Source: Candidatus Uhrbacteria bacterium
GTDB taxonomy: Bacteria; Patescibacteriota; Patescibacteriia; UBA9934
DNA: 64,000 bases
Reading direction: 5' to 3'
NCBI GenBank assembly: GCA_018664485.1
Contig: JABJOE010000009.1
Span: 76,635-140,634, forward strand
Position numbers and translations under genes: made by a program. The notes below the pieces were generated by a model. That model saw nothing but the letters and a program-made list of their open reading frames with translations. It did no database searches and was not told the origin of the DNA. This document shows, in pieces, positions 2,163-56,124 of this stretch (the first letter of the stretch is position 1; every line of letters begins with the position of its first letter).

Positions 2163-4022
2163 CTACTGTGGATCACCCAAAATAGCCTTTATTCGGCGTA
2201 CTCCGGCTGACGAAGCCTGCTCCTTTTTTATCTTAAATTGGCCAAGTTCTGAAGTATTTTCAACATGAGGCCCTCCGCAGATCTCTTTTGAGTAATCTCC
2301 CACAAAATACACCTTAACCTTCCCTTCCATCTGTGCATACTTATCCTCAAATAATCCAATAGCTCCACGCTCTTTTGCTTCATCGACACCCAATAGCTCA
2401 AAATGGACCGGATAAGCAGCCTTAATTTGCTCATTTACAAGCCTTTCAACCTCGACCTTTTCCTCATCTGTCATCTTCTCATCATGTGAGAAATCAAAAC
2501 GAAGGCGTTCTTTGGTGATATTCGATCCACGCTGTGCAACATGATCACCTAAAACAGTACGCAGAGCCTGATGCAGCAAATGTGTAGCTGTATGCAAACG
2601 AGTAGATTCAGCAGAATCATCGGCTAAACCACCCTTAAACTTCTGTTGAGCACCTGCACGTGACAGGTCCTTATGCTTCTGAAACTCTTTCTTGAACATT
2701 TCACGATCTACATCTTGCCCCTCTTCCTGCGCAAGTTCTTCGGTTAGCTCAAGCGGAAATCCGTATGTCTGGTACAAATCGAATGCATCTTTTCCAGAAA
2801 TACTTCCACTCTTATCCCAAACCTTCTTAAACTCTCGGAGACCTTTCTCAAGAGTTTTAGCAAATTTTATTTCCTCTTTTTCTATTTCATCCAGGATTTT
2901 TTCGGATAACTCTGGATATGCTTCCTTATATGTTTCAATATAAGTCTTTGCAACGGCACTTAGAAGTGAATCTCTTACCCCAAGCTGACGAGCAAACCGA
3001 ACCGAACGCCTAAGCAATCGTCGAACAAAATAGCCCTGATCCTTATTAGCAGGGAAAACATTATCTCCTATAAGAAAAGTTGCAGCGCGGACATGGTCAA
3101 GAATTACTCGAAAAGCATAAGTATCCTTAATATCATCTCCATAGACCCTACCACTCACCTGCTCGATAACTTTCTTTGCACCATCGAATAGATCTGTCAT
3201 GAACACATCTGGCGCATCAAGCTTTGCTGCCAAAATACGCTCTAATCCACCTCCAAAATCTACATTTTTGTTTGGCAAGGATTCAAAACCGTCATCCGTC
3301 TTCTGATACTCCATGAAAACATTGTTCCCTATCTCAATGAAGCGGCCGCATTCACAAGTAACCTGACAGTGCTCACCCTTCCATTGCGAAGACTCGTGCA
3401 AACCGTGATGCTCACCAAAGTCCCAGAACATCTCTGAATCTGGACCACCCGGCTCACCACTAGGCATATTTTCTGGCATACCAGTGCGAGACCACCAATT
3501 TTCTTTTTCATCATAGTAAAAAATTCGACCTCCCTGCATACCGTTACTCTCCGCATCATCAACAATCTTTGCATCAACACCAACTTCAGTAAATTTATTT
3601 TGCCAATGCCCTGCCGAAACTTCGTCTCGATCAATCTTACTATTACCACTAAATACCGTAACGTATAAACGCGATGCATCAAGTCCAACCTCCTTTATGA
3701 GAAAATCAAACATCCACGGAATCTGTTCATCTTTAAAATAATCTCCCAAAGACCAGTTTCCCAACATTTCAAAAAACGTTGTGTGACGATTGTCCCCCAC
3801 TTCTTCAATATCTTGTGACCGAAAACACTTCTGAGAATCCGTAATTCGATTACCTGACGCATGTTCTTCACCTAGTAAATATGGAACCATGGGCTGCATA
3901 CCAGACCCAGTAAAGAGCGTCGTTGGATCATTCTCTGGAACCAAAGAAGCGGAAGGAATCTCCGAATGCCCCTTCTCTTTGAAGAAGTCTAAATACTTTC
4001 GCCGTAATTCATTTGCTTTCAT
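2163..4022 (-). CDS. alaS: alanine--tRNA ligase, short form (catalytic plus editing domains, no C-Ala domain)
   Basis: Class II AlaRS motifs at the N-terminus. Editing-domain HxxxH (HTATHLLH) and CGGPH motifs near the C-terminus. 619 aa against about 875 aa for full-length AlaRS. Confidence 0.9.
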   Translation of the reverse strand: MKANELRRKYLDFFKEKGHSEIPSASLVPENDPTTLFTGSGMQPMVPYLLGEEHASGNRITDSQKCFRSQDIEEVGDNRHTTFFEMLGNWSLGDYFKDEQIPWMFDFLIKEVGLDASRLYVTVFSGNSKIDRDEVSAGHWQNKFTEVGVDAKIVDDAESNGMQGGRIFYYDEKENWWSRTGMPENMPSGEPGGPDSEMFWDFGEHHGLHESSQWKGEHCQVTCECGRFIEIGNNVFMEYQKTDDGFESLPNKNVDFGGGLERILAAKLDAPDVFMTDLFDGAKKVIEQVSGRVYGDDIKDTYAFRVILDHVRAATFLIGDNVFPANKDQGYFVRRLLRRSVRFARQLGVRDSLLSAVAKTYIETYKEAYPELSEKILDEIEKEEIKFAKTLEKGLREFKKVWDKSGSISGKDAFDLYQTYGFPLELTEELAQEEGQDVDREMFKKEFQKHKDLSRAGAQQKFKGGLADDSAESTRLHTATHLLHQALRTVLGDHVAQRGSNITKERLRFDFSHDEKMTDEEKVEVERLVNEQIKAAYPVHFELLGVDEAKERGAIGLFEDKYAQMEGKVKVYFVGDYSKEICGGPHVENTSELGQFKIKKEQASSAGVRRIKAILGDPQ

Positions 4023-4147
4023 AATAGAGCCATCGTAGCCGATTTACCCTGTATGATCAAATAAAAATACAGCCGACAATTAATGATCGGCCGCCAATTT
4101 ATCTTAATTTTTGAGTTCTCAGAGATCGTCCATGACGAGCTCATTCA

Positions 4148-4174
4148 AACCCCCGAGATCGCTCGGTGGGTTTA
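4148..4174 (-). terminator. GC-rich hairpin (AAACCCCCGAG-ATCG-CTCGGTGGGTTT) after the last cassette of the array, before alaS
   Basis: Perfect inverted repeat seen in the sequence. The same CCCGAG...CTCGGG hairpin type follows every cassette ORF. Confidence 0.4.
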
Positions 4175-4237
4175 CAGACCTATATTAGAAAGCGGGCCTG
4201 CTAATAACGCTTTTTAGAAAGACTCCTAAAACTCAGA

Positions 4238-4669
4238 CTATGCCCAAAGCTTATTCAAGTCATTGCCGCTGATGAACTCAGGCATGTGAACACCTCTTTT
4301 TGTCTGACGAGAAGCCCTTGCCTGTCTACGAATCAACTGGCAAAGCTCCATTGCCCTGGGCACTTCGTTAGCGTCCACGTGTGCCCCTGAACTCATACGG
4401 CATGTAACACCGCCATCACCGTTCTCCATGTACTTCAACACACCTGGATGACGAACCATCTTAACGCCCAGATCCAGAACCTGCTGATAGGTGATGTCTC
4501 CAAAACCCAGCGCATGTGCCGAAACGACTGTCTGCCTACGACTCGTAGGAAGAGCGCCGTGCCCCAGAAGGGCTGTAGGACGAATTACTGTGACCGATGA
4601 ACCGTCTGCGAACCAAAAGGTCCTCATTCCGAGCTCATCCCTCTGATAAAGCGGCTGATTTTCAGCCAT
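4238..4669 (-). CDS. hypothetical protein, GC-rich cassette A (143 aa)
   Basis: ORF 4238..4762 trimmed to MAENQPLYQ..., which follows the conserved leader repeat directly. The N-terminal extension in the ORF track is just translation of the repeat. No recognisable family. Confidence 0.5.
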   Translation of the reverse strand: MAENQPLYQRDELGMRTFWFADGSSVTVIRPTALLGHGALPTSRRQTVVSAHALGFGDITYQQVLDLGVKMVRHPGVLKYMENGDGGVTCRMSSGAHVDANEVPRAMELCQLIRRQARASRQTKRGVHMPEFISGNDLNKLWA

Positions 4670-4729
4670 ATCGTCTCTTCTGAACCGTAGTTTTGTCCGG
4701 CTCGCAGCGCATCCCTGGGGAGATCCCAG
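4670..4729 (-). repeat. conserved cassette leader, copy A (about 48 nt plus covarying 5-bp hairpin)
   Basis: Gene-strand consensus CAGGGATGCGCTGCGAGCCGGACAAAACTACGGTTCAGAAGTAAAGAGGA then ATG. Four copies at 4670, 5162, 5601 and 6171. Confidence 0.85.
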
Positions 4730-4786
4730 AGTGTACGCATCTAAGCCCCCGAGTGATCGCACTCGGGAGACGCAGTATCTGTGGAC

Positions 4787-5161
4787 CTAAAGGCAAACCG
4801 GATAATGAATCACTCCTGATTGATCAGAAGCTACAGACTGCTCAGCGAGCATTCTCTCAACCTGCCTAACCTTGTCCATATCGCGAAGCACTTGTGTTAT
4901 TCCTTTGTCATCAACCCATTCAAACGCCACTCTGTAGCGACCCTTGAAGTGCTGCCGGAATATCTTCACCCCTCGGACTTCACGAGTTCCAGGAAGGAAC
5001 CAAGTCATAAGGAGTGACAAGAGCCACGGCCACTTCACGAAAAAGTTCGTGAGTCTCGTCTGCTCTCCAACAAGCCTTCTTCCACTGGAGAACCAGATTT
5101 CCAGCTCACCCTGTCCGTTCACTGCCGTGTGAACGGGAACCATTTCCTTGATAGATTTCAT
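4787..5161 (-). CDS. hypothetical protein, GC-rich cassette B (124 aa)
   Basis: The ATG sits immediately after the leader repeat, which ends in an AGAGGA Shine-Dalgarno sequence. No recognisable family. Confidence 0.5.
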   Translation of the reverse strand: MKSIKEMVPVHTAVNGQGELEIWFSSGRRLVGEQTRLTNFFVKWPWLLSLLMTWFLPGTREVRGVKIFRQHFKGRYRVAFEWVDDKGITQVLRDMDKVRQVERMLAEQSVASDQSGVIHYPVCL

Positions 5162-5225
5162 TCCTCTTTACTTCTGAACCGTAGTTTTGTCCGGCTCGCA
5201 GCGCCTCTTTGAAACCAATCAAAGA
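5162..5225 (-). repeat. conserved cassette leader, copy B
   Basis: Near-identical to copy A. The preceding hairpin TTTGA-ttggt-TCAAA covaries with CTGGG-atctc-CCCAG of copy A. Confidence 0.85.
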
Positions 5226-5276
5226 AGAGCGATAGAGCCCCAAAGCGTCACGCGCTTTGGGAAGGTCTGGACCTTT

Positions 5277-5600
5277 TTAGATCCGATCAATTCTTGCCAT
5301 GACACAAATACACCTAATAGTATCACCTAGTTCAAAGATGAAGCGCAGCGTTACCTGTCTAGCAGCTTGAATACAGGTGTAGACCAAAATGTTCATGGCA
5401 CCATCCTCACTGTAATGGCTTCCTGCACGGTACCAAAGTGGACTATCTCTAAGGATTTCGTCCAACTCTGCGAACCAGTCACTATTTCGAGACACCATCA
5501 CTCGATAATGAGACTCGTGAAGAAAGTCTCTCGGAATGAAATTCGGATTAGGCTCGAAGGTTCCATAAGGAACTGGAACTATGACTATAGAGCTACTCAT
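5277..5600 (-). CDS. hypothetical protein, GC-rich cassette C (107 aa)
   Basis: The ATG sits immediately after the leader repeat. No recognisable family. Confidence 0.45.
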   Translation of the reverse strand: MSSSIVIVPVPYGTFEPNPNFIPRDFLHESHYRVMVSRNSDWFAELDEILRDSPLWYRAGSHYSEDGAMNILVYTCIQAARQVTLRFIFELGDTIRCICVMARIDRI

Positions 5601-5661
5601 GTCTTTTTACAGAACCGTGGTTATTTCCGGCTCGCAGCGCATCCCTGAAACGAATTTTCAG
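5601..5661 (-). repeat. conserved cassette leader, copy C
   Basis: The GGGATGCGCTGCGAGCCGG core is conserved. The hairpin CTGAAA-attcg-TTTCAG covaries with the other copies. Confidence 0.8.
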
Positions 5662-5753
5662 AGCTGTGCAGTTGAGCCACCGAGAGAAAATCTCTCGAGT
5701 GACACGAACTTTTGTTTATGCGGTGTTCGTACGTAGAACCGCTAGATATGAAC

Positions 5754-6170
5754 TTATTTTACTGGCGGTCGAAGGAAGCGCTGATCAACCATTTTTTTGT
5801 ACTTTTCAGTTGACAGTTCTTCGTATGTGAGCTGAGTCGGGTAAACAATCCCCTCACAGATACTAGCAGCCTCCTGCTGTCCAGCAATCCGCAACAGGAG
5901 CTCTCTTCGATCGTCTGCGAGTGTGACGTGGTAGCCACCTCTCACGTCCAACCAATAGACAGTGTCACCTTCCTCATCATCAAAGTAAGCCAGAATTCCT
6001 GCAAAGAATCCGTACTCGACGTCATTGAGGACATTGTCAGGATCCTTCACCTTTCCGTACCTGTACTCCGTTCCTTTTGGGGCCCCGCAGCACCTTCCGT
6101 CCAGTGCGAAGATCCATTCTTTTCCGGTGATGATGACCTTGATCAGGTCACTAGATGTGCTATCGGGCAT
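5754..6170 (-). CDS. hypothetical protein, GC-rich cassette D (138 aa)
   Basis: ORF 5754..6293 trimmed to MPDSTSSDLIK..., which follows the leader repeat (…GTAAAGAG ATG). No recognisable family. Confidence 0.5.
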   Translation of the reverse strand: MPDSTSSDLIKVIITGKEWIFALDGRCCGAPKGTEYRYGKVKDPDNVLNDVEYGFFAGILAYFDDEEGDTVYWLDVRGGYHVTLADDRRELLLRIAGQQEAASICEGIVYPTQLTYEELSTEKYKKMVDQRFLRPPVK

Positions 6171-6233
6171 CTCTTTACTTCTGAACCGTGGTAGAACCGG
6201 CTCGCAACGCATCTCTAGAAAAGAACTTCCTAG
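6171..6233 (-). repeat. conserved cassette leader, copy D (first in transcription order)
   Basis: …GATGCGTTGCGAGCCGGTTCTACCACGGTTCAGAAGTAAAGAG ATG. Confidence 0.8.
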
Positions 6234-6366
6234 CTTATGCGTATTTAGGCCCCCGAGATAACTCGGATGTAAAAAAACTGGCAACCACAACAATTAAGTC
6301 GTAATCCCAGTAATCTGATCGCTGGTTCAGAGATATATTGTCTGACAATTCTTTACCTCTGAGACA

Positions 6367-6395
6367 AGGATAGCATAAAATCGCACTTTTGTCAA
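6367..6395 (-). promoter_or_regulatory. putative promoter of the cassette array (TTGACA, 17 nt, TGcTATCCT)
   Basis: Gene-strand ACTTGACAAAAGTGCGATTTTATGCTATCCT. About 24 nt are identical, spacer included, to the promoter at 18625 and highly similar to the one at 29905. Confidence 0.45.
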
Positions 6396-6427
6396 GTACG
6401 ACCGAACAAATAAATCGCTTATCTTAG

Positions 6428-8035
6428 CTAATTTTGTTCCAAAATTGCCTCTTCGGGGTGATTTTTACGCATAATCTTTCGGCGAAGTCCGCTAACTATA
6501 TTGAGTAGCTCCTCGCTTTTGAACAGATAAGCAATTGATACATAAACAAGAAGTCCAGCGCCACCTGCAACCAACAATTGAGCGAAAACGCCAACAAATG
6601 TATCGAGTGTAATCCACTCAACTACAACACCCTTAACAATCTGAGTAACGACCCCACAGCATGCCGCAGCAGCCACAAAGACCAATAGAGACTTTGCAAT
6701 GTGCAACTCGCCCAAGCTCCCCATCTTCACACGTAACCACCCCCATAGGAAGACGAACTGAATGACAACAGCAATCGAATATGCAGCGCCTAATCCGATT
6801 ACACCAAATTCTTGGGTTAATAACACCGCGGCAAATCCATGAAATACAGCCGCGAACGTTCCTATTATAAACGGAGCAACTGTCTGCCCACGTGAAAAGT
6901 ATACTCGCACCAATAAGTAAATTAGCGCCTGGATAGTCAGCGTCATAGCAAAGAGCCCCAATGTGTTCGCGGTAAGAATTGTAGCCTCCCAGTCGAATTG
7001 ACCAGCACCCACCACTAAACGGACAACCTGCGCACGAAGCATGATGAATAGAACTGTTGCAGGAACTAAAAAGAATAACATCTGCCTTGCCGTGGATGAG
7101 ATCGTTTGTACAAACGCTTTCTTCTTTTTATCATTCGCCAACTCGCACAATGTCGGATACGCAGCTATAGCGTACGACACCCCAATGATCCCAACTGCAA
7201 AAAAGTTCAAATTATATGCGAATTGCAAAACCGTTACTGACCCTACAGCTAACGTTGAAGCGATAGCAGTCATCAAAAAGATATTCACCTGCCCCACCGC
7301 AAGACCTAGGGTTCTCGGCATCATATGCTTAAGCGTATAGATAACGTCTTTGTCTTTGAGAACTAAACTAAATTTAAAACGATGACCAAGCGCCCTCGCC
7401 CCCATCCATTGCGTAAACATATGCAATGCGGCTCCGATAACAACACCCCAAGCCAGACCTATCGGCCACTCTTCCGTTGCAATCCATACAGCTCCAACGA
7501 TAATACCTACATTGTAAAAAATTGGAGCCAGCGAGTATATAAAGAACCGCTTAGCACCCTGTAGCACCGATCCGTAGATCATAGACACGGACAAAAGGAA
7601 CTGAGCTAAGAACATCACACGGGACATGTCAGCGACCATATCAAGCTTAGCCTGCGAGAATCCAGGGGCAACCATGGCGGCTAATGGATCGGCCGCAACC
7701 ATCATTATAAGCGTCACTACACCAAAACCGATAGCAACCAGTGTAAGCATGGTGTTTGTAAATTTCCACGCCTTCTTTATTCGTTTTTTGTGATAGTACT
7801 TTGTAAAAATCGGAATGAAACTAGCAGAAAGTGCTCCCACGACAATCATCTGAAACATCAAATCAGGAATCCGAAATGCTGCAAAATACACATCTAAGAC
7901 ATCAGAAGCTCCAAACAGTCCAGCCAAGATTCTATCGCGAACGAATCCTACAAGACGAGACAGAATCGAAAACAGTGCAACAATTGCTGCTGCACTTGTA
8001 ATCGTATTAGATTTTCCTGAGAGCCATGAAAACAT
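6428..8035 (-). CDS. murJ: lipid II flippase MurJ (MviN family)
   Basis: 535 aa polytopic membrane protein. The N-terminal VGFVRDRILAGLFGASDVLDVYFAAFRIPD is characteristic of MurJ. Confidence 0.85.
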   Translation of the reverse strand: MFSWLSGKSNTITSAAAIVALFSILSRLVGFVRDRILAGLFGASDVLDVYFAAFRIPDLMFQMIVVGALSASFIPIFTKYYHKKRIKKAWKFTNTMLTLVAIGFGVVTLIMMVAADPLAAMVAPGFSQAKLDMVADMSRVMFLAQFLLSVSMIYGSVLQGAKRFFIYSLAPIFYNVGIIVGAVWIATEEWPIGLAWGVVIGAALHMFTQWMGARALGHRFKFSLVLKDKDVIYTLKHMMPRTLGLAVGQVNIFLMTAIASTLAVGSVTVLQFAYNLNFFAVGIIGVSYAIAAYPTLCELANDKKKKAFVQTISSTARQMLFFLVPATVLFIMLRAQVVRLVVGAGQFDWEATILTANTLGLFAMTLTIQALIYLLVRVYFSRGQTVAPFIIGTFAAVFHGFAAVLLTQEFGVIGLGAAYSIAVVIQFVFLWGWLRVKMGSLGELHIAKSLLVFVAAAACCGVVTQIVKGVVVEWITLDTFVGVFAQLLVAGGAGLLVYVSIAYLFKSEELLNIVSGLRRKIMRKNHPEEAILEQN

Positions 8036-12796: not shown

Positions 12797-13117
12797 ATGA
12801 GCCACGTGCTACCTGTTATTAGCAGTATTATTTTCACCGATCTTTTAGACTCGTTTCAGCCTGCTAGATTCACCGGCCAAGGCCCCGCCTACGACGTGAC
12901 ATCAGACACACCCCTTAAAAGTGGGCCAATCGGACTCTATCGTCCAAAGGAAAAGGGTGCTGCCCCCTACAGGGTCACGTTCCGACATGGACAAGGAGAC
13001 GATTTCATTGTCATCCAGGACCTATCCATGAACATCCGAGTCCCCAAAGGTCTCACAACCTTCGGCGCGCTTATCACCGCGTTGAACGAGACCATTAAAG
13101 CTGAAGAGACTAAATAG
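12797..13117 (+). CDS. hypothetical protein in a moderately GC-elevated patch
   Basis: ORF of 106 aa with no recognisable motifs. Local GC is visibly higher than the flanks. Confidence 0.4.
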   Translation: MSHVLPVISSIIFTDLLDSFQPARFTGQGPAYDVTSDTPLKSGPIGLYRPKEKGAAPYRVTFRHGQGDDFIVIQDLSMNIRVPKGLTTFGALITALNETIKAEETK

Positions 13118-18592: not shown

Positions 18593-18624
18593 CTAAAATT
18601 AGCGACTTTTTTGCTCAAAGGTAC

Positions 18625-18653
18625 TTGACAAAAGTGCTTTTTTATGTCATTAT
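18625..18653 (+). promoter_or_regulatory. promoter module ACTTGACAAAAGTGCTTTTTTATGTCATTAT (shared with cassette arrays)
   Basis: Consensus -35 TTGACA, 17-nt spacer, CATTAT. Spacer sequence is identical to the array promoter at 6367..6395. Confidence 0.55.
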
Positions 18654-18753
18654 GGGCACGACGAAAGTCACTTCACCCAAAAACAACGGCTCAAAGCCAA
18701 AACGCGGCAACCCCGCAATCGAGAGACTATTGAAACTGAAGACACTGGTCGCA

Positions 18754-19122
18754 ATGGCCACCATCATGTTCGCAACCTTCGCCACCAAGACCGCCGAGGC
18801 ATGCGGAGGTGAAAACTTGCATATGTACTTCGGCTACGACTGGTTCGTCTACAGGTTGCCGAAGGATCACCCAAAGGGTGCTACGGTTGTAAGAGCGATC
18901 CCCAAATCGAAACTCACCGTTGTCATTGACGACGAGGGCGATAGCACGGTCGTCACTCTCCATGAGGGTGATAAAACCCTGATGACCGGAAAGATCTTCG
19001 CATGCTTCCGCTGTATGAGTTCCCCGACCTACATCAAATGGGAAGACCCTGAGACAAGAAAAGAACGAAAAGTGAACGACAAGGGTACCGCAGCGGCCCG
19101 ACTCGCATGCGTGAGCGAATAG
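18754..19122 (+). CDS. hypothetical protein in a GC-rich island (start uncertain)
   Basis: The upstream part of the ORF overlaps the promoter -10, so the start was moved to MATIMFATFATKTAEA (signal-peptide-like). The 5' UTR carries a GAC-GAAA-GTC tetraloop hairpin like the cassette leaders. Confidence 0.4.
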   Translation: MATIMFATFATKTAEACGGENLHMYFGYDWFVYRLPKDHPKGATVVRAIPKSKLTVVIDDEGDSTVVTLHEGDKTLMTGKIFACFRCMSSPTYIKWEDPETRKERKVNDKGTAAARLACVSE

Positions 19123-19200: not shown

Positions 19201-20574
19201 CTAAAACACAAACTCTTGCGAGAACATCGGAATGATTACCTCGCTATCAATTTCTTTTTCAATAAACTCTTTGAATTCTGGCTTTACCTTCTCATCACCG
19301 TGCACCAAAAATACCTGATCTATCTTCCCTTCTTTTGGTTTGAGCCAGGATCGTAGCTTGTTACGATCACCATGCGCCGAGAATGACCCGATAGCCTTGA
19401 TAGTCGCGTTTACATCTATATCCTTCTGGTGAATCTTAACTTTCTTTGCACCATCTTTAATCTGGCGCCCCAGAGTTCCCTCTGCCTGGTAACCGATGAT
19501 CAATACCCCGCTCTTTTTATCTGACAGATACCGAATAAGATGATGCAGGATTCTCCCACCTGTCATCATTCCGGATCCAGCAATAATAATCTTTGGGCCA
19601 CGATCGCTGTTGATCTTTTTCGACGCATCCATTCGCAACGTCTCCACCAAACGTGGGAACGTAAAGAAGTCATGGTCTGAACTTGAATGAATCGGCCGAT
19701 CAAAACGTAGATAATGTTTAAAATGTCTGTAAATTTCAGTAGCTTTAATTGCAAGCGGACTATCCAAATATACCGGAACCTTGGGTAGAACCCCCTCGTC
19801 TGCCAGCAGGTCCAACTCATAAAGTAACTCCTGTGTACGCTCGATCGAAAATGCAGGAATAAGCAATGTTCCTCCACGATTAATGATCGACGACACCATC
19901 TTTACCAACTCCTTATTACGTTGCGGAACAGGTTCATGATCGCGATTACCGTAAGTCGTCTCACATACAACTATATCCGCCTTCAAAATAGGCTCTGTGT
20001 CTGGTAGAATTGGTACCTCCTCATTTCCAATATCTCCACTAAATAGTAATCGTTTTGGTTTACCGTCTTCTGTTTCACTCCCTGGTACATCGATAGTTAC
20101 ATACGCAGAACCTAAGATATGACCTGCGTCGTGGAACATCACATTTACACCCGGAACAATCTCAAACTGAGTGTGGTATCCGATACCTTTCATCTGGGAT
20201 TCTGTTCTCTTTACATCATCAGGAGAAAATAAAATAATGTCACCATTACGCCGAGCATTTTCGGACATGACATGCTGAGCGTCTTCAAGCACGATAGATG
20301 CCAACGCTTTGGTTGGTGGAGTTGTATAAATCGTTCCCCGGAATCCCTGCTTCACGATGAGCGGATAGCGTCCGATGTGATCGTAATGAGCATGCGTGAT
20401 AATTCCAGCATCGATGTCCTTAGCATTAAATCCAACGTCTATCAGATTCTTATTAGACACCATTCGCTGACCCTGGAACATTCCACAGTCAACAAGTATT
20501 TTACTCTCTTTAAACTCCAACAAAAAACACGACCCGGTTACGCCGCGGACTCCTCCGTGAAAAGATAGCTTCAT
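19201..20574 (-). CDS. metallo-beta-lactamase / beta-CASP family ribonuclease
   Basis: HAHYDH metal-binding motif plus a beta-CASP region and C-terminal His, typical of the RNA-metabolising MBL family. Confidence 0.75.
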   Translation of the reverse strand: MKLSFHGGVRGVTGSCFLLEFKESKILVDCGMFQGQRMVSNKNLIDVGFNAKDIDAGIITHAHYDHIGRYPLIVKQGFRGTIYTTPPTKALASIVLEDAQHVMSENARRNGDIILFSPDDVKRTESQMKGIGYHTQFEIVPGVNVMFHDAGHILGSAYVTIDVPGSETEDGKPKRLLFSGDIGNEEVPILPDTEPILKADIVVCETTYGNRDHEPVPQRNKELVKMVSSIINRGGTLLIPAFSIERTQELLYELDLLADEGVLPKVPVYLDSPLAIKATEIYRHFKHYLRFDRPIHSSSDHDFFTFPRLVETLRMDASKKINSDRGPKIIIAGSGMMTGGRILHHLIRYLSDKKSGVLIIGYQAEGTLGRQIKDGAKKVKIHQKDIDVNATIKAIGSFSAHGDRNKLRSWLKPKEGKIDQVFLVHGDEKVKPEFKEFIEKEIDSEVIIPMFSQEFVF

Positions 20575-28815: not shown

Positions 28816-29403
28816 TTAAAAATCCAATCCCTCGCGAGCTTTTACTCCTGAATAGAAATAGTGACGTTCAAGTTTTGATTCTGTAATTAAATGGGCGGCT
28901 TCTAAAAATTCAGGACATGGATCACGGCCGGTCAAAATAACTTCTACATCTTCGTTCTTTTGCGCAAGAGCATCTAAAACCAGCTTTGAATCGAGCATCC
29001 CAAGATCAGTTGTAGAGTTTATTTCATCGAGGATAACAAGACTGTATTCACCGCTCGTTAAAAACCCTCGTGTTAACTCAAGTCCGCGACTCGCTTCTTT
29101 CTTATCGATGTCTGTAATTGAAAAATCAAAGCGTCCATTCACAGGATCTATTCGATCACGACCTGTTACGAAATAATCAATGTTTTCTATTTTATCTAGC
29201 GCAAGGCGCTCGAAGTAATGATCATTCCCACCTTTATCAAAATAAACAATAGTCACTTTGCGACCTGATCCAGCACAACGAATTGCCTGCCCAAGCGCCG
29301 CCGTTGTCTTTCCTTTACCATGCCCGTGAATGAGCTGAATAAGTCCATACCCTTGCCTTCCAAGGATTCGTTTATCCGCTATTGGTTGTTGTTTTTCCGT
29401 CAT
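28816..29403 (-). CDS. cobO: cob(I)yrinic acid a,c-diamide (corrinoid) adenosyltransferase, CobO/BtuR type
   Basis: P-loop GHGKGKTTAA. Conserved ILDEI and the C-terminal HYFYSGVKAREGLDF block. Confidence 0.8.
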   Translation of the reverse strand: MTEKQQPIADKRILGRQGYGLIQLIHGHGKGKTTAALGQAIRCAGSGRKVTIVYFDKGGNDHYFERLALDKIENIDYFVTGRDRIDPVNGRFDFSITDIDKKEASRGLELTRGFLTSGEYSLVILDEINSTTDLGMLDSKLVLDALAQKNEDVEVILTGRDPCPEFLEAAHLITESKLERHYFYSGVKAREGLDF

Positions 29404-29537
29404 AAAATTGACAAAGCCTTGTTTTGTATTAAAATTTGATCAAATTCCTGCGTCACATACCAGGTCGGTTTACGAAAGTGAACTAAGTAGGAAAATTTCA
29501 CCTCACCAAATGAAATCTATTGAAGCTGGAGGATACC

Positions 29538-29753
29538 ATGGCTCTGGATGACGTTTTGGCAAGAGAGATGGGTCGTGAACCTGCAGCCGGCCACCAAGGA
29601 CAGACACGCGCACCCACTGACCAATCAATCGGTAATGCGATGAGATTCGCTGCCGCATGTAGACGACTCTCAGCGAGAGCGAGGCACGGCCACCACAAGC
29701 GACTCCCACGACGCCAAACAGAACAAGAAACGCCCCATTGGCACATCGACTAG
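29538..29753 (+). CDS. hypothetical small basic protein, GC-rich tandem cassette 1 (71 aa, ends PHWHID)
   Basis: ATG 5 nt after a GGAGGA SD. The last 6 codons lie inside the 123-bp direct repeat. Confidence 0.45.
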   Translation: MALDDVLAREMGREPAAGHQGQTRAPTDQSIGNAMRFAAACRRLSARARHGHHKRLPRRQTEQETPHWHID

Positions 29754-29860
29754 CCCGCGTCACCATCTTGGCGTGAGGAGCACCCGTACGATCTGATCGT
29801 GCGGGTGCCTTGCTTTTTACATGTAAAAAAACCGCTCTACCCTCACAACAAAACTTTCTA
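29738..29860 (+). repeat. 123-bp direct repeat copy 1 (ORF 3' end + terminator + T/A palindrome)
   Basis: Near-identical to 30421..30543. Contains the hairpin GCACCCGTACGATC-tga-TCGTGCGGGTGC, then CTTGCTTTTTACATGTAAAAAAA. Confidence 0.9.
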
Positions 29861-29904
29861 CGCATACACAACCAAATTACGTATTTTTTTGCTACTCATA
29901 TACT

Positions 29905-29933
29905 TGACAAAAGACCTATTTTATGACAATATT
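29905..29933 (+). promoter_or_regulatory. promoter module ACTTGACAAAAGACCTATTTTATGACAATAT for cassette 2
   Basis: TTGACA, 17 nt, CAATAT. Homologous to the modules at 18625 and 6395. Confidence 0.5.
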
Positions 29934-30040
29934 TTATCCTAATTCCTGTGCTATATGCCAGGTCGGTTCACGAAAGTGAGCTCAGGAGGACCAGGTTTCC
30001 ATCCTTATCCAATGGGGACATCAGAGACAAGGAGGGCTAC

Positions 30041-30436
30041 ATGCCCGCAACCGGAGACAAGGACTACGTCCGCTATCTCGTCAGAACCAGTGGAGGAGTC
30101 AAACGATTCCGTGACTCACAGGATTCGCCTGATGGCGGCCGCGTTGAAGTCCCGTTCGAACTCAGCATCATGTCCTGGAATGGCAAGAGATGGGTCCACC
30201 CGCAGCCTACCAATAACTGGATCGTGATCATCGACGGCACGCATCGTGGCAATATCGCTGGAAGTGTTCTTCTTCGAGGTAAAATGCGTCGACGGCACCA
30301 TGACGCAGGTATCCGTAAAGAATACGACTTCAAGGGCATCCGGTTCTTCGGCCATAGCCCTCTTGTAGGAAGTGCTCTCGGATTCCTCAACGTCTGGGAT
30401 CACGGCACAAGCCCGCCCGCTTGGCACATCGACTAG
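30041..30436 (+). CDS. hypothetical protein, GC-rich tandem cassette 2 (131 aa, ends PPAWHID)
   Basis: ORF 29948..30436 trimmed to MPATGDKDY, 6 nt after an AAGGAGG SD. The C-terminal 6 codons are shared with cassette 1 through the direct repeat. Confidence 0.45.
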   Translation: MPATGDKDYVRYLVRTSGGVKRFRDSQDSPDGGRVEVPFELSIMSWNGKRWVHPQPTNNWIVIIDGTHRGNIAGSVLLRGKMRRRHHDAGIRKEYDFKGIRFFGHSPLVGSALGFLNVWDHGTSPPAWHID

Positions 30437-30543
30437 CCCGCGTCACCATCTTGGCGTGAGGAGCACCCGTACGATCTGATCGTGCGGGTGCCTTGCTTTT
30501 TACATGTAAAAAAACCGCTCTACCCACGCAACAAAACTTTCTA
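30421..30543 (+). repeat. 123-bp direct repeat copy 2
   Basis: See copy 1. Confidence 0.9.
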
Positions 30544-30668
30544 TATATACGCAACCGGGTTGCGTATTTTTTACTACCAACAACCCCAGGTCTTCTCGAC
30601 CCGGGGCTTTCGTATTCCTTCTCTTAAAACCTTCAGAATTGCGTTAGATCTGGCTGTGAAGCTTCGGT

Positions 30669-38649: not shown

Positions 38650-40230
38650 TCATGATAGCTCCTCCTTCTTCTCTTTTACAAATTCAAACCATTCTTCCGT
38701 GAAGCGTACAGCAACTTTGTATGGAGCCTCAATAATGAAGTCGAAGAAATAGATAAAGACATTCACCTTTGCAACCTTCACAGATAACCATCGTCCTGCA
38801 CGCACTATTGGAAGCATTAGAAGGTCAAACATTGAACCGATGATACCGCGGCGGGACTTTGAAAGTATAATATCCCTTGTAAGCCCACGAATGCGAATTC
38901 CAAAGAATGTTACAAGCGACAGGAAGAACAAGAACAATGCAATAGAAAAAGCATTGAAACCAAGCTTATGCAAGAAAAATGCGATAGCACCGTATATAAC
39001 AAAGAACAATAGAGAATATACTACCGCAAAAATCTGCTTCCACGCACCGAATCTATTGACTTGCACCTTAACATTCAACATATCGTGGCTCGCACCTACT
39101 ACAAGAGCGCGTGCTGCTGACTTATAGTCCTCAGCATTACGACGTTCCGGCAAAGTTACAGTAAGTCCTATGATGGCCAAGAAGATCGGGTGGAATAAAA
39201 TATTTACAATAAGTGGAACTATAAATAGCTCACCATGTACAAGTAAGTCGTATGGAATCTCGAGTATCAGAGCTAAGAACATCTTTGTTATGAACAAAAA
39301 TGCTACTGCCCGCACAACCGTTCTCCGTAAACGTTTTCGGAATGTACTAGTCTGTACTTTTAACCTCTTCCACATTGCACGACCTAACAAATCCGGTTCC
39401 TGTGTAACATACCCCTCAAACTCATGTGGAAAATTTTCAATGACATCCAGCAACACGCGGAACAATCCAGCCTTACGACGAACGCGATGAGTAAGCTTCT
39501 CAGTCAACCAATGCTCAATCTGCAAATCAACGGTCGCTATTACAGTTTCTAGATTTTGTGCAATCTCCAAAATTCGAGCCCGCGATGATGCGCCAACCCA
39601 ATCCGGATAATACAGTGTCATCAACCTGTAACGAAGTGTTGCATGGTTAGATTTGAGTAATGTCTTGTGGCATGCAACGAAAAGTCTAATGTCCCTATCC
39701 TCTTCACTTACATCAAGTTTAGTATCCCACGCGGTTCTCTTCTTTAACTCCTCATACATGTAACTTGCCATGTACTCCTCTCTATCATGCGAAATCAATG
39801 TATATTCAACTTCTGTCGACAATACATCTAACACCCATGTCATTGCATATTCTGGGTTTGATGTCTTCTGAGCTGCGTCAAAGATTGGTCCGTACTTTAA
39901 AAAGACTGGTTTTAAATCGTTAATAAATGATGTTGGGACCTGCTTATTTGGAAGATATTTTGCCCAAACAAGTTCCTGCAATAAAAGTGATGCCATGTCT
40001 TCCAGAACCGTATCGGAACCCAAATACCTACGCAATATTCGCGTAATGGCATTCCGTCTAAGAAGATGCTCTTCCTGATATTCAAGCGTTGTACGAACAC
40101 GTTCATACAGTGCTGCGGCAGTAGATGCCGGAACACTAACCTCAATAGTCTCCTCCCCATCACCTTCAGGTGGAACCATTGGTTTTGAGCCGATAATAGC
40201 TTGGCCGATTTGTGAGAGTCGATTGGACAT
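38650..40230 (-). CDS. hypothetical membrane protein (about 270-aa cytosolic N-domain plus about 6 TM helices)
   Basis: Hydrophobic C-terminal half; no recognisable catalytic motif. Confidence 0.5.
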   Translation of the reverse strand: MSNRLSQIGQAIIGSKPMVPPEGDGEETIEVSVPASTAAALYERVRTTLEYQEEHLLRRNAITRILRRYLGSDTVLEDMASLLLQELVWAKYLPNKQVPTSFINDLKPVFLKYGPIFDAAQKTSNPEYAMTWVLDVLSTEVEYTLISHDREEYMASYMYEELKKRTAWDTKLDVSEEDRDIRLFVACHKTLLKSNHATLRYRLMTLYYPDWVGASSRARILEIAQNLETVIATVDLQIEHWLTEKLTHRVRRKAGLFRVLLDVIENFPHEFEGYVTQEPDLLGRAMWKRLKVQTSTFRKRLRRTVVRAVAFLFITKMFLALILEIPYDLLVHGELFIVPLIVNILFHPIFLAIIGLTVTLPERRNAEDYKSAARALVVGASHDMLNVKVQVNRFGAWKQIFAVVYSLLFFVIYGAIAFFLHKLGFNAFSIALFLFFLSLVTFFGIRIRGLTRDIILSKSRRGIIGSMFDLLMLPIVRAGRWLSVKVAKVNVFIYFFDFIIEAPYKVAVRFTEEWFEFVKEKKEELS

Positions 40231-40238: not shown

Positions 40239-40690
40239 TTAGGGATTAGGGATTAGGTGTTAGGTATCAAAACTCATCAGAGACCAGCTTTCAATGAACG
40301 GATTGAGCTATTTAACATCTTCATAACCTCAGTAAGTGACCCCAATAACGGGTTGACACCGTCATCGTCAACAAACTTTAAACGTTTTGCGATCTCTATC
40401 TGTGTTTCCAATTCTGACCCTGAAGCATACGCAATATAAACAAAACGCAGAAATTCTTTTCTGGAGCCCCTGCCACGTCCCTCTGCAATATTAGAGGGAA
40501 TAGAAACGGCGCATCTCCTCATCTGTGATATAAGTCCATATTGTTCTTCTTTGGGGAAACTCGCAGTCATACGATAGACCGATACCACTAAGTCCATTGC
40601 CTTTTGCCACATGACTAAATCTTTATAACTCTTCACCTCCATACCTATAAGATAGTGTCTATCACCTAATACCTGATACCTATAACCTGA
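40239..40690. mobile_element. IVS-like element: long imperfect inverted repeat of TAGGT heptads enclosing a four-helix-bundle protein gene
   Basis: Left arm TTAGGGATTAGGGATTAGGTGTTAGGTATCA (40239-40270). Right arm TGATACCTATAACCTGA region (40661-40690). The arms are reverse-complementary with wobble pairs and abut the ORF stop and start. Confidence 0.45.
40277..40642 (-). CDS. four-helix-bundle protein (23S rRNA intervening-sequence protein family; Avd-like)
   Basis: 121 aa; …VYRMTASFPKEEQYGLISQMRRCAVSIPSNIAEG… is the hallmark block of the PF05635/TIGR02436 family. Confidence 0.8.
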   Translation of the reverse strand: MEVKSYKDLVMWQKAMDLVVSVYRMTASFPKEEQYGLISQMRRCAVSIPSNIAEGRGRGSRKEFLRFVYIAYASGSELETQIEIAKRLKFVDDDGVNPLLGSLTEVMKMLNSSIRSLKAGL

Positions 40691-41481: not shown

Positions 41482-41859
41482 CTAGTCAGTGTACTCTCTA
41501 ATCTTTTTAATTACGGTTTCAAGTGTCGTATCCGATTTTACAATATAATCAACTACGCCAAGTGTTTTCGCCCTATCAACATCAGTAACCTGACCTAAGT
41601 TAGTAAGCATTATTACAGGTATATCCTTAAGCTCATCATCTTCTCTCATAGCATCGAGCACGCCAAACCCATCTAACTTTGGCATGATAATATCCAACAA
41701 AACCAGAACGGGTTTTCGTGAACGCATCAACTCTAAACCAATTTCACCATTCTCAGCTACTTCAGCAACAAAGCCTTCTTTATCGAGCTTTGTATTGTAT
41801 ATATTCGCTAAAAACTTGTCGTCTTCAACAATAAGAACATATTTTTTTGAATCCTCCAT
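41482..41859 (-). CDS. single-domain response regulator (receiver only)
   Basis: LIVEDD; phospho-Asp LLDIIMP; T and K positions present. No output domain. Confidence 0.8.
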   Translation of the reverse strand: MEDSKKYVLIVEDDKFLANIYNTKLDKEGFVAEVAENGEIGLELMRSRKPVLVLLDIIMPKLDGFGVLDAMREDDELKDIPVIMLTNLGQVTDVDRAKTLGVVDYIVKSDTTLETVIKKIREYTD

Positions 41860-41862
41860 ACA

Positions 41863-42285
41863 TTAGGCGATCGCCCCCTGCAGATCAGTTGCGGGCAACT
41901 CAATTATTAACTTCACTCTAGAAATAATATCAGTCAATCTATGTTCAGCTTTCACAAAGAATACAGTAGCTTCAAGTTCAAAAGCCTGAGCCACTACCTC
42001 CTCTGATCCTACATTTGAAACAATCACAACTGCAATATGCTTCCATTTTGAGTTTGCACGAACTCGTTTCAAAAAATCTATTCCACTCATTCCGGGTAAC
42101 ATAACATCAAGCCAAATTAGATCAAAAGATCCACCACCCTCTAACTTCTCGAGCGCCTTTTCAGCTGTAACAACAGTCACCACTTCAAAACCCTCTTGCT
42201 TCAGCTTCCTTGAAACCGCTGATTGCAACGGGACCTCATCCTCTACAACTAGAATCCTTTTTGTCTCGTTTTTTGAAATGGCCAT
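41863..42285 (-). CDS. single-domain response regulator (receiver only)
   Basis: LVVEDE; IWLDVMLPGMSG. Confidence 0.8.
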   Translation of the reverse strand: MAISKNETKRILVVEDEVPLQSAVSRKLKQEGFEVVTVVTAEKALEKLEGGGSFDLIWLDVMLPGMSGIDFLKRVRANSKWKHIAVVIVSNVGSEEVVAQAFELEATVFFVKAEHRLTDIISRVKLIIELPATDLQGAIA

Positions 42286-42287
42286 AA

Positions 42288-42614
42288 TTATTTATCAAGT
42301 ATTTTTTTTATCTTTTCTATCGTATTATCCAAAGACACTTCTGCTTTTACAAAAAAGTATGTCTTACCATCCTCAAGATAATCCTCATAAGCTTTCTCAT
42401 CTGAAGTATTTGTAACTACAAATACCGGAATATTTTTCCAATTATCACTATTCCTTATGTTTTTTAAAACCTCCAAACCATTCATGTTTGGCAAATAGTG
42501 ATCCAGCCAAATTACAGAAGGTGAAGGGTCTAGGTGATCCAAATAATCTAATGCTTGAGCACCATCCCGAGCAGTCACAACATCAAACCCAGAAATACCG
42601 AACTTCCGCACCAT
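42288..42614 (-). CDS. N-terminally truncated or atypical receiver domain protein
   Basis: Phospho-Asp (VIWLDHYLP), T and K are present. The beta1 acidic pair is missing and there is a stop 8 codons upstream in frame. Confidence 0.45.
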   Translation of the reverse strand: MVRKFGISGFDVVTARDGAQALDYLDHLDPSPSVIWLDHYLPNMNGLEVLKNIRNSDNWKNIPVFVVTNTSDEKAYEDYLEDGKTYFFVKAEVSLDNTIEKIKKILDK

Positions 42615-43962
42615 GCGGCGTAACTTTTGGCATTAACAATCCAAGTACCAACATTAATGCTCCACAAATCACACATGCAATACCTACAAAAAGTCCAATA
42701 AATGCAAACGCCATCGGTGAAAAGAAAAGGAACGGGAAACTAATCAATATTCCAACTACCTGGCGAATAAATGATCCTCTTACAAAATACCCATCATCAA
42801 CTAACTTGCGCGTTATCGCTCGTTTAATCTTGGTAACATCTGAAGGCAAAATTCTATTCTTTACCTTGTTTAGCTTAACCTCCGTCTTCTTCTTAAATAG
42901 AAGATCAAACAAGAGCTTATGAGCTTCATCTAAGTCGTCGCCCTCTTTCTTTTTGATGATCGTGATATTACCTGGATGCTTTTTCTTTGTATTCCCCTTT
43001 ACATCCATGTCCAAATACCCCTTAGAAGCAAGCTGGATCACCATTGATGACAATAACCTCTGGCTTGGCTGATGAGATAAAAACGAACCTACATACACAG
43101 CCCAAAGTCCATCAGGTGGATCATACTGGGCTATTATTGTGTCATTACGCTTTGGATCTCGACCGGCCCTAGTCCACCAAAAGAACATTGCGCACAAAGC
43201 CATTAACGGAATAACTCCAGCCCAATTATCCATCAAAAACCACAACACTCTATCAAGCGACGTTGGCCGCCAGATTACGCCCGCTGGAACATCCACGGAA
43301 ACGGTCATAAATCCGTCTGTCGCAAAAGCAATTATATTGTCATCTTGTGCTGAACCACAATCCTGTGACGTAGAACCATATGCGCCCGTATAACAGGACC
43401 ACTGAGTGGGCATAAGTCCATCAGGGAAAATAATTGCAGTCGAACTTTCGTTGATTGGCACCTCCCAATCCGTTCCAGTCACATTCCAATATAATGTCGT
43501 TGCAGTATCGCTATACAACAGTGCACGCTCAACCTCATACACAATCGTATACTCATGCTCACCCGTAATGGTAAGGCTAGGATTACCGATCTTAATAGTT
43601 CTGTCCCCTCCTGATTTATATATATCAACCTGAACTTCCTCTCCATCCAATAAAACACCTTGAACGTTCAAATCTATAGTTTGTCGATTTCCAAGATGGT
43701 CCCGATATACAACTGGAATATCCCGATATATTCCATGCTTCTCAGCATTAAACGTGACATCAATCGTTTCTGTAACTAAAAACGATGCATCTTCACGCAC
43801 CTCAATCTCAGAATCAAAATGATCTATTGACCAGCCGTAAAGATCAACATACATGTCATCTTCAAAATAATCGTATCGATCGTACTCAAGTGCTTGGGCC
43901 GGCAATACAAAAACAACCAACAAAAAAATACTTGCAATAACGCCTGAAAAGAATCTAAACAT
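42583..43962 (-). CDS. DUF2207-family membrane protein
   Basis: The HGIYRDIP block after the signal/anchor is the signature of the DUF2207 N-domain. C-terminal TM helices. Confidence 0.6.
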   Translation of the reverse strand: MFRFFSGVIASIFLLVVFVLPAQALEYDRYDYFEDDMYVDLYGWSIDHFDSEIEVREDASFLVTETIDVTFNAEKHGIYRDIPVVYRDHLGNRQTIDLNVQGVLLDGEEVQVDIYKSGGDRTIKIGNPSLTITGEHEYTIVYEVERALLYSDTATTLYWNVTGTDWEVPINESSTAIIFPDGLMPTQWSCYTGAYGSTSQDCGSAQDDNIIAFATDGFMTVSVDVPAGVIWRPTSLDRVLWFLMDNWAGVIPLMALCAMFFWWTRAGRDPKRNDTIIAQYDPPDGLWAVYVGSFLSHQPSQRLLSSMVIQLASKGYLDMDVKGNTKKKHPGNITIIKKKEGDDLDEAHKLLFDLLFKKKTEVKLNKVKNRILPSDVTKIKRAITRKLVDDGYFVRGSFIRQVVGILISFPFLFFSPMAFAFIGLFVGIACVICGALMLVLGLLMPKVTPHGAEVRYFWV

Positions 43963-55986: not shown

Positions 55987-56124
55987 ATGAGCCCTTTGGA
56001 AATCGGCTGCCTCCTTGCGATCATCGCCATCATGCAAATGTTTGGCAATGACAATGACTTCTCACACCAAGTAGGAACGAAAAAGAAGATGAACGCATTT
56101 CTCACCAACTCGCCCTCAATCTGA
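55987..56124 (+). CDS. possible small hydrophobic protein (45 aa), not in ORF track
   Basis: Manual translation gives MSPLEIGCLLAIIAIMQMFGNDNDFSHQVGTKKKMNAFLTNSPSI, with an AAAGAG SD-like sequence upstream. It ends inside the first trailer repeat. Confidence 0.25.
   Translation: MSPLEIGCLLAIIAIMQMFGNDNDFSHQVGTKKKMNAFLTNSPSI

Follow-up and report, generated by a model that had tools for sequence, protein, structure and literature searches.

Four unrelated orphan genes of a Candidatus Uhrbacteria species share a ~100-nt intercistronic leader with covarying hairpins

Four small genes without recognizable relatives lie between murJ and alaS in one species of Candidatus Uhrbacteria (Patescibacteria), and each is preceded by a copy of the same ~100-nt leader, which is predicted to fold into three hairpins (P1, P2 and P3) and carries a Shine-Dalgarno (SD) sequence directly ahead of the start codon. 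The array occupies 2.4 kb on the minus strand (4023–6427) of the 64,000-nt stretch of DNA that was analyzed, referred to below as the window. Judged by the substitutions between its copies, the leader is an RNA structure that has not been described previously and that displays clear compensatory evolution. We read the array as a portable intercistronic RNA expression module (mRNA stabilization or processing together with translation start) within an acquired operon of orphan genes, a tentative reading that we place somewhat short of probable. A first-pass annotation of the same DNA had not recognized the arrangement as a described system, and this view stands, as no Rfam family matched and the leader is not a member of any system with which we compared it.

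Every gene of the region is encoded on the minus strand, with the murJ stop codon at 6428 and the alaS start codon at 4022, and the array reads, in the direction of its genes, as one promoter-like site, four units composed of P1, P2, P3, SD and an ATG-initiated open reading frame (ORF), a decayed fifth leader and a terminator. Alignment of the junctions defined the repeat unit as ~100 nt of P1-P2-P3-SD, in which P1 is followed by the linker GGCYUAAAU, P2, UGC, P3 (GAGCCG-loop-CGGUUC), a purine-rich SD tail and the ATG. The first-pass annotation had described a conserved element of ~48 nt; the conservation was borne out, but the actual unit is the longer one and takes in a hairpin that had been regarded as terminator-like. 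This GC hairpin, P1, belongs to the CCGAG-N4-CTCGG type and is located 15–54 nt past the preceding stop codon. It had been reported after each ORF in the form CCCGAG-N4-CTCGGG, and it is indeed present at five sites, although at two of these the sequence differs without loss of pairing (CCCAAAGCG/CGCTTTGGG and CGAGAGA/TCTCTCG). P2 is a composite hairpin with an apical part of 7–9 bp, wholly different between copies, on a semi-conserved base of 2–6 bp; the variable hairpins with preserved pairing noted earlier correspond to it, but they had been taken as only 5 bp long. The 64 kb contain exactly four copies of the core GCGAGCCGG-N8/9-ACGGTTC, where chance would give zero, and each of them lies 11–14 nt ahead of an array ATG, in agreement with the earlier view that a conserved junction carrying the ribosome-binding site (RBS) lies ahead of each ORF. 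The four leaders are co-oriented, and each ends 0–3 nt short of a start codon, for which it provides the SD. A covariance model built from the four leader copies and searched over the window with filters off scored them at 78–107 bits, and the best other match in the window was no better than E = 0.07; the leader is therefore not a generic RBS context, an alternative that the first-pass annotation had itself raised.

Leader 1 (6275–6168, 77.9 bits; all array coordinates are on the minus strand) has the P1 hairpin CCGAG-TTAT-CTCGG, the P2 hairpin ACGCAT..CTAGGAA-GTTCT-TTTCTAG..ATGCGT and a P3 of GAGCCG-9 nt-CGGTTC (core at 6205–6183), and its SD, AAAGAG, serves the ATG at 6170. In leader 2 (5703–5597, 103.5 bits), P1 is GTCAC-T-CGAGAGA-TTT-TCTCTCG-GTGGC and P2 is CTCTGAAA-ATTCG-TTTCAGGG on a GC/GC base, with the P3 core at 5635–5612 and the ATG at 5600. 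Leader 3 (5264–5161, 99.7 bits) contains P1 CCCAAAGCG-CGTGA-CGCTTTGGG, P2 CTTCTTTGA-TTGGTT-TCAAAGAGG, a P3 core at 5199–5176 and the SD AAAGAGGA, followed by the ATG at 5161. In leader 4 (4771–4667, 107.3 bits), P1 is CCCGAGTG-CGAT-CACTCGGG, P2 is GCGTA..CTCTGGG-ATCTC-CCCAGGG..TGCGC, the P3 core lies at 4705–4682 and the ATG at 4669. Over a sharply bounded block of 34 nt, leaders 3 and 4 are 100% identical. The start-to-start spacing of the units is 570, 439 and 492 nt. A degenerate fifth copy, missed in the first-pass annotation, follows ORF4 at 4171–4098; its P1 is intact (CCGAG-CGAT-CTCGG, 4166–4150) and a P2-like hairpin is kept, whereas it has lost the SD and the stem of P3 (17/30 identity with the core; 6.6 bits, E = 3.5), and no ORF lies downstream. 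Junction 2 is ~40 nt longer than the other junctions, and its extra part (in 5745–5712) includes a small hairpin with CGGTTCTAC, a match to leader 1 in the P3 region (CCGGTTCTAC) that could be the trace of a lost unit or due to chance.

The case for a conserved RNA structure rests on how the copies differ. The folding z-scores of the units range from −2.2 to −3.9, and the same three hairpins form in each of them. In the alignment fitted to the model, 88% of the cells are paired compared with 38–48% in slid controls, and six pairs are changed on both sides; the values for pairing and double changes were reached by none of 500 shuffles, so the covariation that the first-pass annotation had proposed for the junctions is present. 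Four double changes separate P1 of leader 3 from P1 of leader 4. The apical stems of P2 (CUAGGAA/UUUCUAG, CUCUGAAA/UUUCAGGG, CUUCUUUGA/UCAAAGAGG and CUCUGGG/CCCAGGG) contain zero mismatches, and together with P1 they are nearly all different between copies, yet mismatch-free. In all four copies the sense strand is more stable than the antisense strand, by 4–9 kcal/mol of minimum free energy (MFE), with 2–4 G-U pairs each, and folding in the mRNA is therefore favored. P3 behaves differently from the other two hairpins, as none of its 12 stem columns varies, compared with 6 of 10 columns in the loop (Fisher p = 0.003), and its GCGYUGC flank is also invariant. A fixed stem with a variable loop points to a constraint on sequence as well as shape, for which recent duplication alone would be insufficient. 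The third pair of P3 is G-U in every copy, and in three of the four an unpaired A comes next. These substitution patterns indicate that the leader structure is under selection and is read on the sense strand.

The probability that the SD is unpaired is 0.39–0.75 in the leaders and 0.51 ± 0.18 in 46 control genes, and since this accessibility equals that of the controls, the leader appears to present the RBS and not to hide it. A helix that closes the structure by pairing the 5′ flank with the SD was present in three of the four MFE folds and was not robust, and a role for it in hiding the SD is not supported by the accessibility values. Several other identities were considered for the leader and set aside. 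Hammerhead, twister and similar ribozymes, prompted by the motif CUGCGAG...GAAG, did not fit in their cores and gave no Rfam match, a coding function was dismissed because the frame relative to the ORF varies among the copies, and ARAGORN gave no match when a tRNA-like reading was considered. No window match reached the gathering score in Rfam 15, and at E ≤ 10 the region 3800–6700 returned solely eukaryotic noise from long non-coding and small nucleolar RNA families.

The core pattern was also scanned for in three collections with exact matches, which makes the results weak negatives. Genome contigs gave 89 single matches in unrelated high-GC taxa, all at ≤18 bits and thus attributable to chance; metagenome contigs gave one contig of the same strain (the collection evidently misses some samples that contain the species); and the 17 matches in viral contigs were chance matches.

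The genes behind the leaders are ORF1 (6170–5754; 138 aa, pI 4.7; NCBI MBT4857383, hypothetical), ORF2 (5600–5277; 107 aa, pI 5.5), ORF3 (5161–4787; 124 aa, pI 9.7, with one hydrophobic segment) and ORF4 (4669–4238; 143 aa, pI 9.4), all of them orphan genes. Among the six frames of every ORF, the annotated one reaches by far the highest codon score, and GC1 exceeds GC2, so the alternative that the region lacks coding signal, also named in the first-pass annotation, does not hold. The GC content of third codon positions (GC3) is 0.51–0.55 for ORF1, ORF3 and ORF4 compared with 0.39 in host genes, and codon scores of 0.0–0.16 are below the 0.31 ± 0.07 of the host, ORF2 being the nearest of the four to host usage. 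The array ORFs are genuine genes with a foreign-like signature. As claimed before, they match no known family: Pfam, PHROGs, PADLOC and NCBIfam were empty for all four. ORF1 found itself alone among 5.8 billion clusters, as did ORF4 in an exhaustive HMMER search over 1.84 billion representatives, in which its weak matches to long proteins were repeat artefacts; the large protein databases were searched with these two, and ORF2 and ORF3 were compared with family libraries, viral contigs and their own clusters. All four proteins are listed as hypothetical in an NCBI metagenome-assembled genome of Candidatus Uhrbacteria, and their 90% clusters contain this species alone. Phage and viral collections yielded no match for the array. 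Single-sequence AlphaFold2 gave no usable fold (pLDDT 33 for ORF1 and 48 for ORF3), and Foldseek with the low-confidence ORF3 model returned no match below E = 0.2.

The earlier description of the four co-oriented ORFs as mutually unrelated agrees with the statistical tests, apart from one borderline case. Smith-Waterman scores against shuffles, six-frame tblastn and pair profiles revealed no similarity above shuffles for five of the six protein pairs, and the four-way alignment score (z = 0.95) carries no signal of shared ancestry. The exception is a C-terminal match between ORF1 and ORF3, with 13/43 identities and E = 0.006 before correction for six comparisons.

The locus was recovered in twelve contigs from different metagenome samples in three archives, which are 99.8–100% identical and differ by two single-nucleotide polymorphisms in total. 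The array is therefore not an assembly artefact. By its alanyl-tRNA synthetase the organism belongs to Candidatus Uhrbacteria; the source contig, in JGI 3300072015, measures 986 kb, and the NCBI metagenome-assembled genome has the locus tags HON52_04320–04335. No gain, loss or turnover of cassettes was observed among these contigs. In a relative with 70% identity in alanyl-tRNA synthetase (AlaRS), the murJ-alaS gap is 52 nt and represents an empty site, while in relatives at 79% and 73% AlaRS identity this site, or the stretch just past alaS, is occupied by other orphan genes. The first-pass annotation had suggested looking in related genomes for the same locus with different cassettes; other orphan genes are found there, but none has the leader, which was absent from the relatives examined (70–79% AlaRS identity), and no copy occurs in three related loci. 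The regions concerned are 6876–8001 in L116, 1025–1635 and 3494–4908 in L117, 7948–8001 in L118 and 1936–3468 in L122, of which the site in L118 is empty and those in L116, L117 and L122 carry different GC-rich orphan genes without a Pfam domain, some on the opposite strand. The murJ-alaS-infA neighborhood differs in each relative examined, and by this comparison it is an insertion hot spot in related Uhrbacteria. In L117 (3900–4700, minus-strand genes), two paralogous orphan genes stand in tandem with a CCGAG-N4-CTCGG hairpin after each. The two hairpins differ by one compensatory change, and behind each lies a bidirectional terminator (AAAAAACACCTNCAAGAGGTGNTTTTTT) that is nearly identical in the two units. 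Of the leader's hairpins, P1 is thus a motif common to both species, and P2 and P3 are not.

The edges of the array are in line with a single transcription unit. The promoter-like site (6398–6367) consists of TTGACA (6395–6390), a 17-nt spacer with TG, and TATCCT (6372–6367), with 10/12 consensus matches. A promoter near 6395 heading the array had been proposed, and a promoter-like site is present there, ~100 nt ahead of the first hairpin and ~200 nt ahead of the first ATG. A sigma-70 consensus scan, which is blind to other promoter types, found no promoter-like site inside any of the four leaders. The sole canonical intrinsic terminator of the array lies at 4094–4069 and has a 9-bp stem followed by ATTTTTATTT; the P1 hairpins are without a U-tract, whereas real terminators of the same genome carry one. 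The GC content of the insert had been called clearly higher than that of the surroundings. It is raised overall (0.47–0.56 compared with about 0.43–0.44 in the flanks), but the rise is modest and does not extend to ORF2. Copies of the 8-mer TAAGATAA at 4099–4106 and 6419–6426 (minus strand), the latter just past the murJ stop codon, enclose the insert as direct repeats; the 8-mer has 7 copies in the window compared with 2.4 expected, and the pair may be a target-site or att remnant or may have arisen by chance (about p = 0.1). Directly downstream of the promoter, at 6361–6350, the leader's 3′ SD part recurs (CAGAGGTAAAGA, a third copy of CAGARGTAAAGA), and a mini-ORF of 37 codons with a TTG start (6348–6235) passes through P1 of leader 1 and stops within P2. 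These two features may represent a remnant cassette or an upstream ORF.

A recurring design elsewhere in the window, which the first-pass annotation had missed, combines common flanks with unrelated ORF bodies and a common promoter family. A repeat scan of the whole window revealed two such loci, both on the plus strand. The first comprises two tandem units (29400–30600), each with a promoter, a ~50-nt leader, a different ORF and a common 3′ module. Its leaders (29443–29492 and 29941–29990) are 82% identical and end in an AGGAGGA-type SD, its ORFs (29538–29753, 71 aa; 30041–30436, 131 aa) have bodies without similarity, and its 159-nt 3′ modules (29731–29889 and 30414–30572), which begin within the last codons (..WHID*), are 92% identical overall and 98% in their core. 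Such 98% identical flanks around unrelated ORFs argue for exchange and not divergence. The second locus (55987–57690) has a common 52-nt leader (56498–56549 and 57283–57334; 87% identity) with the hairpin CAGAA-ATCC-TTCTG and an SD; one copy stands ahead of a 224-aa ORF and the other ahead of an 80-aa membrane ORF unrelated to it. A 3′ module of 71 nt (56124–56194 and 57616–57686; 80% identity) follows the 80-aa ORF and another of 45 aa. The promoter family was defined by the array promoter 16-mer TACTTGACAAAAGTGC (6383–6398, minus strand; family form TACTTGACAAAAGTGC...TTTTATG), of which an exact copy lies at 18622–18637 and copies with 2–3 mismatches lie at 29901–29916 and 56233–56248, all on the plus strand. 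In total, 5 matches with ≤3 mismatches were found compared with 0.68 expected, and copies of TACTTGACAAAAGTGC head four islets whose orphan genes are atypical in codon usage. Downstream of the copy at 18622 lies a 156-aa orphan gene that is rich in GC3 (18652–19122).

According to the reading that we favor, an accessory operon was inserted at the variable murJ-alaS spot in one Candidatus Uhrbacteria species, and a transcript from the one sigma-70-type promoter would read through four cistrons to the single intrinsic terminator. The ~100-nt structured RNA module between the cistrons would act in cis on the mRNA. P1 would close the upstream cistron and protect its 3′ end, the A/U-rich single-stranded linker that follows would be a likely entry point for an endonuclease, and P2 and P3 would form a 5′ protective pair of stem-loops for the downstream cistron, with P3, 11–14 nt ahead of the start codon, handing over to the exposed SD. 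Every foreign ORF could in this way gain equal stability and the same translation-start context. The invariant P3 stem and GCGYUGC flank would probably be contacted sequence-specifically by a trans factor, either protein or RNA. The leader would have originated as a reusable expression adaptor with unrelated ORF bodies between its copies, as at the two other loci in the window, and the copies would offer about 35–100 nt of homology for recombinational gain and loss. The fifth leader, which lost exactly its RBS-proximal part where no ORF follows, was counted in favor of an expression module. The window also encodes an RNase J-like protein with beta-CASP, metallo-beta-lactamase and RMMBL regions (19201–20574, minus strand), a possible candidate for the nuclease against which the 5′ stem-loops would protect.

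Several points weigh against this reading. Read-through, processing and the effects on translation are all inferred from sequence features. The leader is known from just four copies in one near-clonal population, for which the covariation statistics are weak by R-scape standards and do not allow function to be generalized. Hairpins alone would need no strict conservation of P3 and its flank, and the main role of the leader may instead be that of an operator, a riboswitch or a recombination site. The invariant cassette content leaves the shuffling part of the proposal without direct support at this locus. The search for further copies covered 64 kb of the 986-kb genome.

The conservation of P3 and its flank could also be that of a responsive regulatory RNA, either a riboswitch-like aptamer or an operator for an RNA-binding protein, which would switch the four cistrons jointly. 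Invariant stems beside a variable loop, the fixed spacing of 11–14 nt between P3 and the start codon and a multi-helix junction with conserved single-stranded linkers would all suit such an element. However, no alternative fold that sequesters the SD is apparent, SD accessibility does not depart from the controls, the closing helix with the 5′ flank appears in only three of four MFE folds, and no Rfam family matched even at E ≤ 10, and we consider this explanation unlikely, if far from negligible. A speculative extension builds on the G-U third pair and the unpaired A (three of four copies), which resemble the acceptor-stem identity element of tRNA-Ala: P3 would mimic the acceptor stem and tie the operon to the neighboring AlaRS. 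The array is missing in relatives with a syntenic alaS, so its adjacency to this gene probably reflects the insertion hot spot. A relic of tandem duplication, in which one unit of leader plus gene was multiplied, the proteins diverged past recognition and gene conversion kept the leaders alike, would account for the similar size of the units, the weak C-terminal match between ORF1 and ORF3 and the block of identity in leaders 3 and 4, which looks like a conversion tract, and it has a parallel in the clearly paralogous tandem orphan genes of L117 with their repeated 3′ elements. It is nonetheless improbable, as similarity above shuffles was lacking in five of six protein pairs and also in the four-way alignment, the profile comparisons and the six-frame comparisons, P1 and P2 have diverged to saturation solely via compensatory changes, the combination of fixed P3 stems and a variable loop speaks for selection and not for neutral relics or simple conversion, and the 98% identical flanks at 29.4–30.6 kb suggest exchange.

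The first-pass annotation had likened the locus to an integron- or CALIN-like array, whose junctions would be structure-recognized recombination sites for a recombinase encoded elsewhere in the genome. The resemblance lies in the promoter and the repeated junction-ORF units with orphan genes behind it, the hairpins that vary in sequence and keep their pairing as in attC, the n + 1 junctions for n ORFs, the variation of the locus between species and the possible 8-bp direct repeat at both ends. In detail the comparison is not supported. Neither strand of 4023–6427 contains a pair of R″/R′ core sites (RYYYAAC...GTTRRRY, 57–141 bp apart), single RYYYAAC or GTTRRRY matches never fall within a conserved leader, and the junction is made of three separate hairpins and not of one imperfect palindrome of 57–141 nt. 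It is the sense strand that folds better, by the margin given above, the decayed junction lost precisely the part beside the missing ORF, the cassette content is the same in 12/12 contigs, and the exact-match scans of genomes, metagenomes and viruses gave no multi-copy locus. The accompanying statement that no integrase is present was confirmed, as the about 60 ORFs of the window include none with an integrase, recombinase or transposase domain in Pfam. This leaves an integron-like array quite improbable. A small non-autonomous mobile repeat of the MITE, REP or BOX type, inserted independently at four intergenic positions, is the explanation to which we give the least credence. Compact hairpin-rich intergenic repeats within transcription units are familiar from REP/BIME, ERIC and BOX elements, and CCGAG-N4-CTCGG hairpins also follow orphan genes in a related species. 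Against this stand the lack of any copy beyond the array in 64 kb, the same orientation of the four copies, their position 0–3 nt from a start codon whose SD they provide, the absence of terminal inverted repeats and target-site duplications at the single units, and an ORF spacing too regular for independent insertions.

Genomes of the candidate phyla radiation (CPR) measure ~1 Mb and are nevertheless rich in lineage-specific orphan genes, and the locus bears on how such genes are acquired and expressed, since here and at two smaller loci in the same 64 kb, unrelated foreign-looking ORFs are slotted between reused regulatory modules. A bolder proposal, distinctly unlikely in our estimate, is that this ultra-small CPR genome relies on integrase-free portable adaptors (a promoter family, structured 5′ leaders and trailers with 3′ hairpins) to take up new genes and have them expressed, the leader being an RNA element that would be bound by a dedicated trans factor through P3 and would offer homology for swaps of orphan-gene cassettes, as a chromosomal, RNA-structured counterpart of the promoter-early stem-loop (PeSL) cassettes discussed below. 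If the design is general, it would represent a simple integrase-independent route of gene gain in reduced genomes as well as a new cis-acting RNA motif; if not, it is a private curiosity of one uncultured species, to which it has so far been private.

Other features were observed in the window. The 960-nt gap between uvrC and mraZ (59400–60340) contains two small hydrophobic ORFs of ~50 aa on the plus strand, each with a CCGCGCC..CTCGAG..GGCGCGG-type GC hairpin behind it, and a CCGAG-N5-CTCGG hairpin lies at 59680–59694. The 106-aa ORF at 12797–13117 (plus strand) has no Pfam match, its GC3 is 0.54 and its codon score is atypical of the host; it is probably one more orphan gene that was acquired. 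The 121-aa protein encoded at 40277–40642 (minus strand) matches PF05635 (23S rRNA intervening-sequence protein; E = 1.7e-40) and, more weakly, bAvd-like proteins; Pfam recognizes no domain in the 526-aa ORF beside it (38650–40230), and the window showed no reverse transcriptase. At 41482–44347 (minus strand), a DUF2207 membrane protein is surrounded by four stand-alone response-regulator receiver proteins, with a Cache-HAMP histidine kinase (44351–46228) next to the cluster.

When the array is set beside known systems, each of them has some features in common with it. In the early region of T7, with its intercistronic RNase III sites, and in REP/BIME hairpins, conserved hairpins stand between unrelated cistrons under one promoter region and one terminator and define processed or stabilized mRNA segments, each followed by an RBS. 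In the array, the helices of P2 do not reach the length of typical RNase III substrates, cleavage is putative and sequence similarity is absent, and unlike REP elements, which are dispersed genome-wide, the leader is confined to one operon within the 64 kb. With integrons and CALINs the array has in common promoter-headed, co-oriented small genes, for the most part without a known function, and junctions that are more conserved in structure than in sequence; it differs in the absence of IntI from the window and of R″/R′ sites, in its three hairpins, in a junction that provides the RBS of the next gene and in the lack of visible turnover.

The PeSL cassettes of T4-like phages resemble the array in layout. 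They are ~100-bp intergenic elements that extend from an upstream stop to a downstream start codon and contain a GC stem-loop with G-T pairs and, at the end, an SD and ATG; they flank orphan genes in a hyperplastic region, their flanks are conserved around unrelated ORF bodies, and the authors likened the arrangement to integrons (PMC2839356, PMC4122927). The Uhrbacteria leader is likewise a conserved stop-to-start cassette with stem-loop, SD and ATG, and its array holds orphan genes in a variable neighborhood. However, every PeSL cassette has a strong sigma-70-like early promoter, whereas the array has a promoter at its head alone; the leader has three hairpins with compensatory covariation and a third helix that is invariant in sequence; it lies on a CPR chromosome, with murJ, alaS and ribosomal protein genes nearby, and not in a phage, and it has no match in phage collections; and the indels and mini-circles that recombination produces at PeSL were not found among the contigs compared. 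The SAS of Cluster K mycobacteriophages is a 13-bp element (consensus GGGATAGGAGCCC) dispersed over half a phage genome 3–8 bp ahead of start codons; it is asymmetric, includes the SD and stands in one orientation ahead of unrelated, mostly non-structural genes (PMC3203893). In many cases an inverted repeat whose spacer varies stands ahead of it (ESAS). A role in translation start was proposed; RNA pairing is reported not to be supported by the ESAS repeats, and DNA-binding proteins were favored (PMC3203893). The leader resembles SAS/ESAS as a conserved SD-containing element at the starts of unrelated genes and differs in its sequence, which is not GGGATAGGAGCCC, in the maintenance of pairing by compensatory changes and in the preference for the sense strand. 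Promoter propagation, in which near-identical putative mobile promoters are reused before unrelated genes of one genome (PMC3488235), has a parallel in TACTTGACAAAAGTGC at the head of four orphan-gene islets, although there the promoters alone are reused, whereas here the 5′ leaders and 3′ trailers are reused too, and within a single operon. In summary, because its internal copies are without a sigma-70-like promoter, its sequence is unrelated and its host is a CPR chromosome, the leader is not a member of the PeSL or SAS/ESAS classes, nor does it belong to that of promoter propagation, and PeSL and SAS/ESAS are its nearest analogues.

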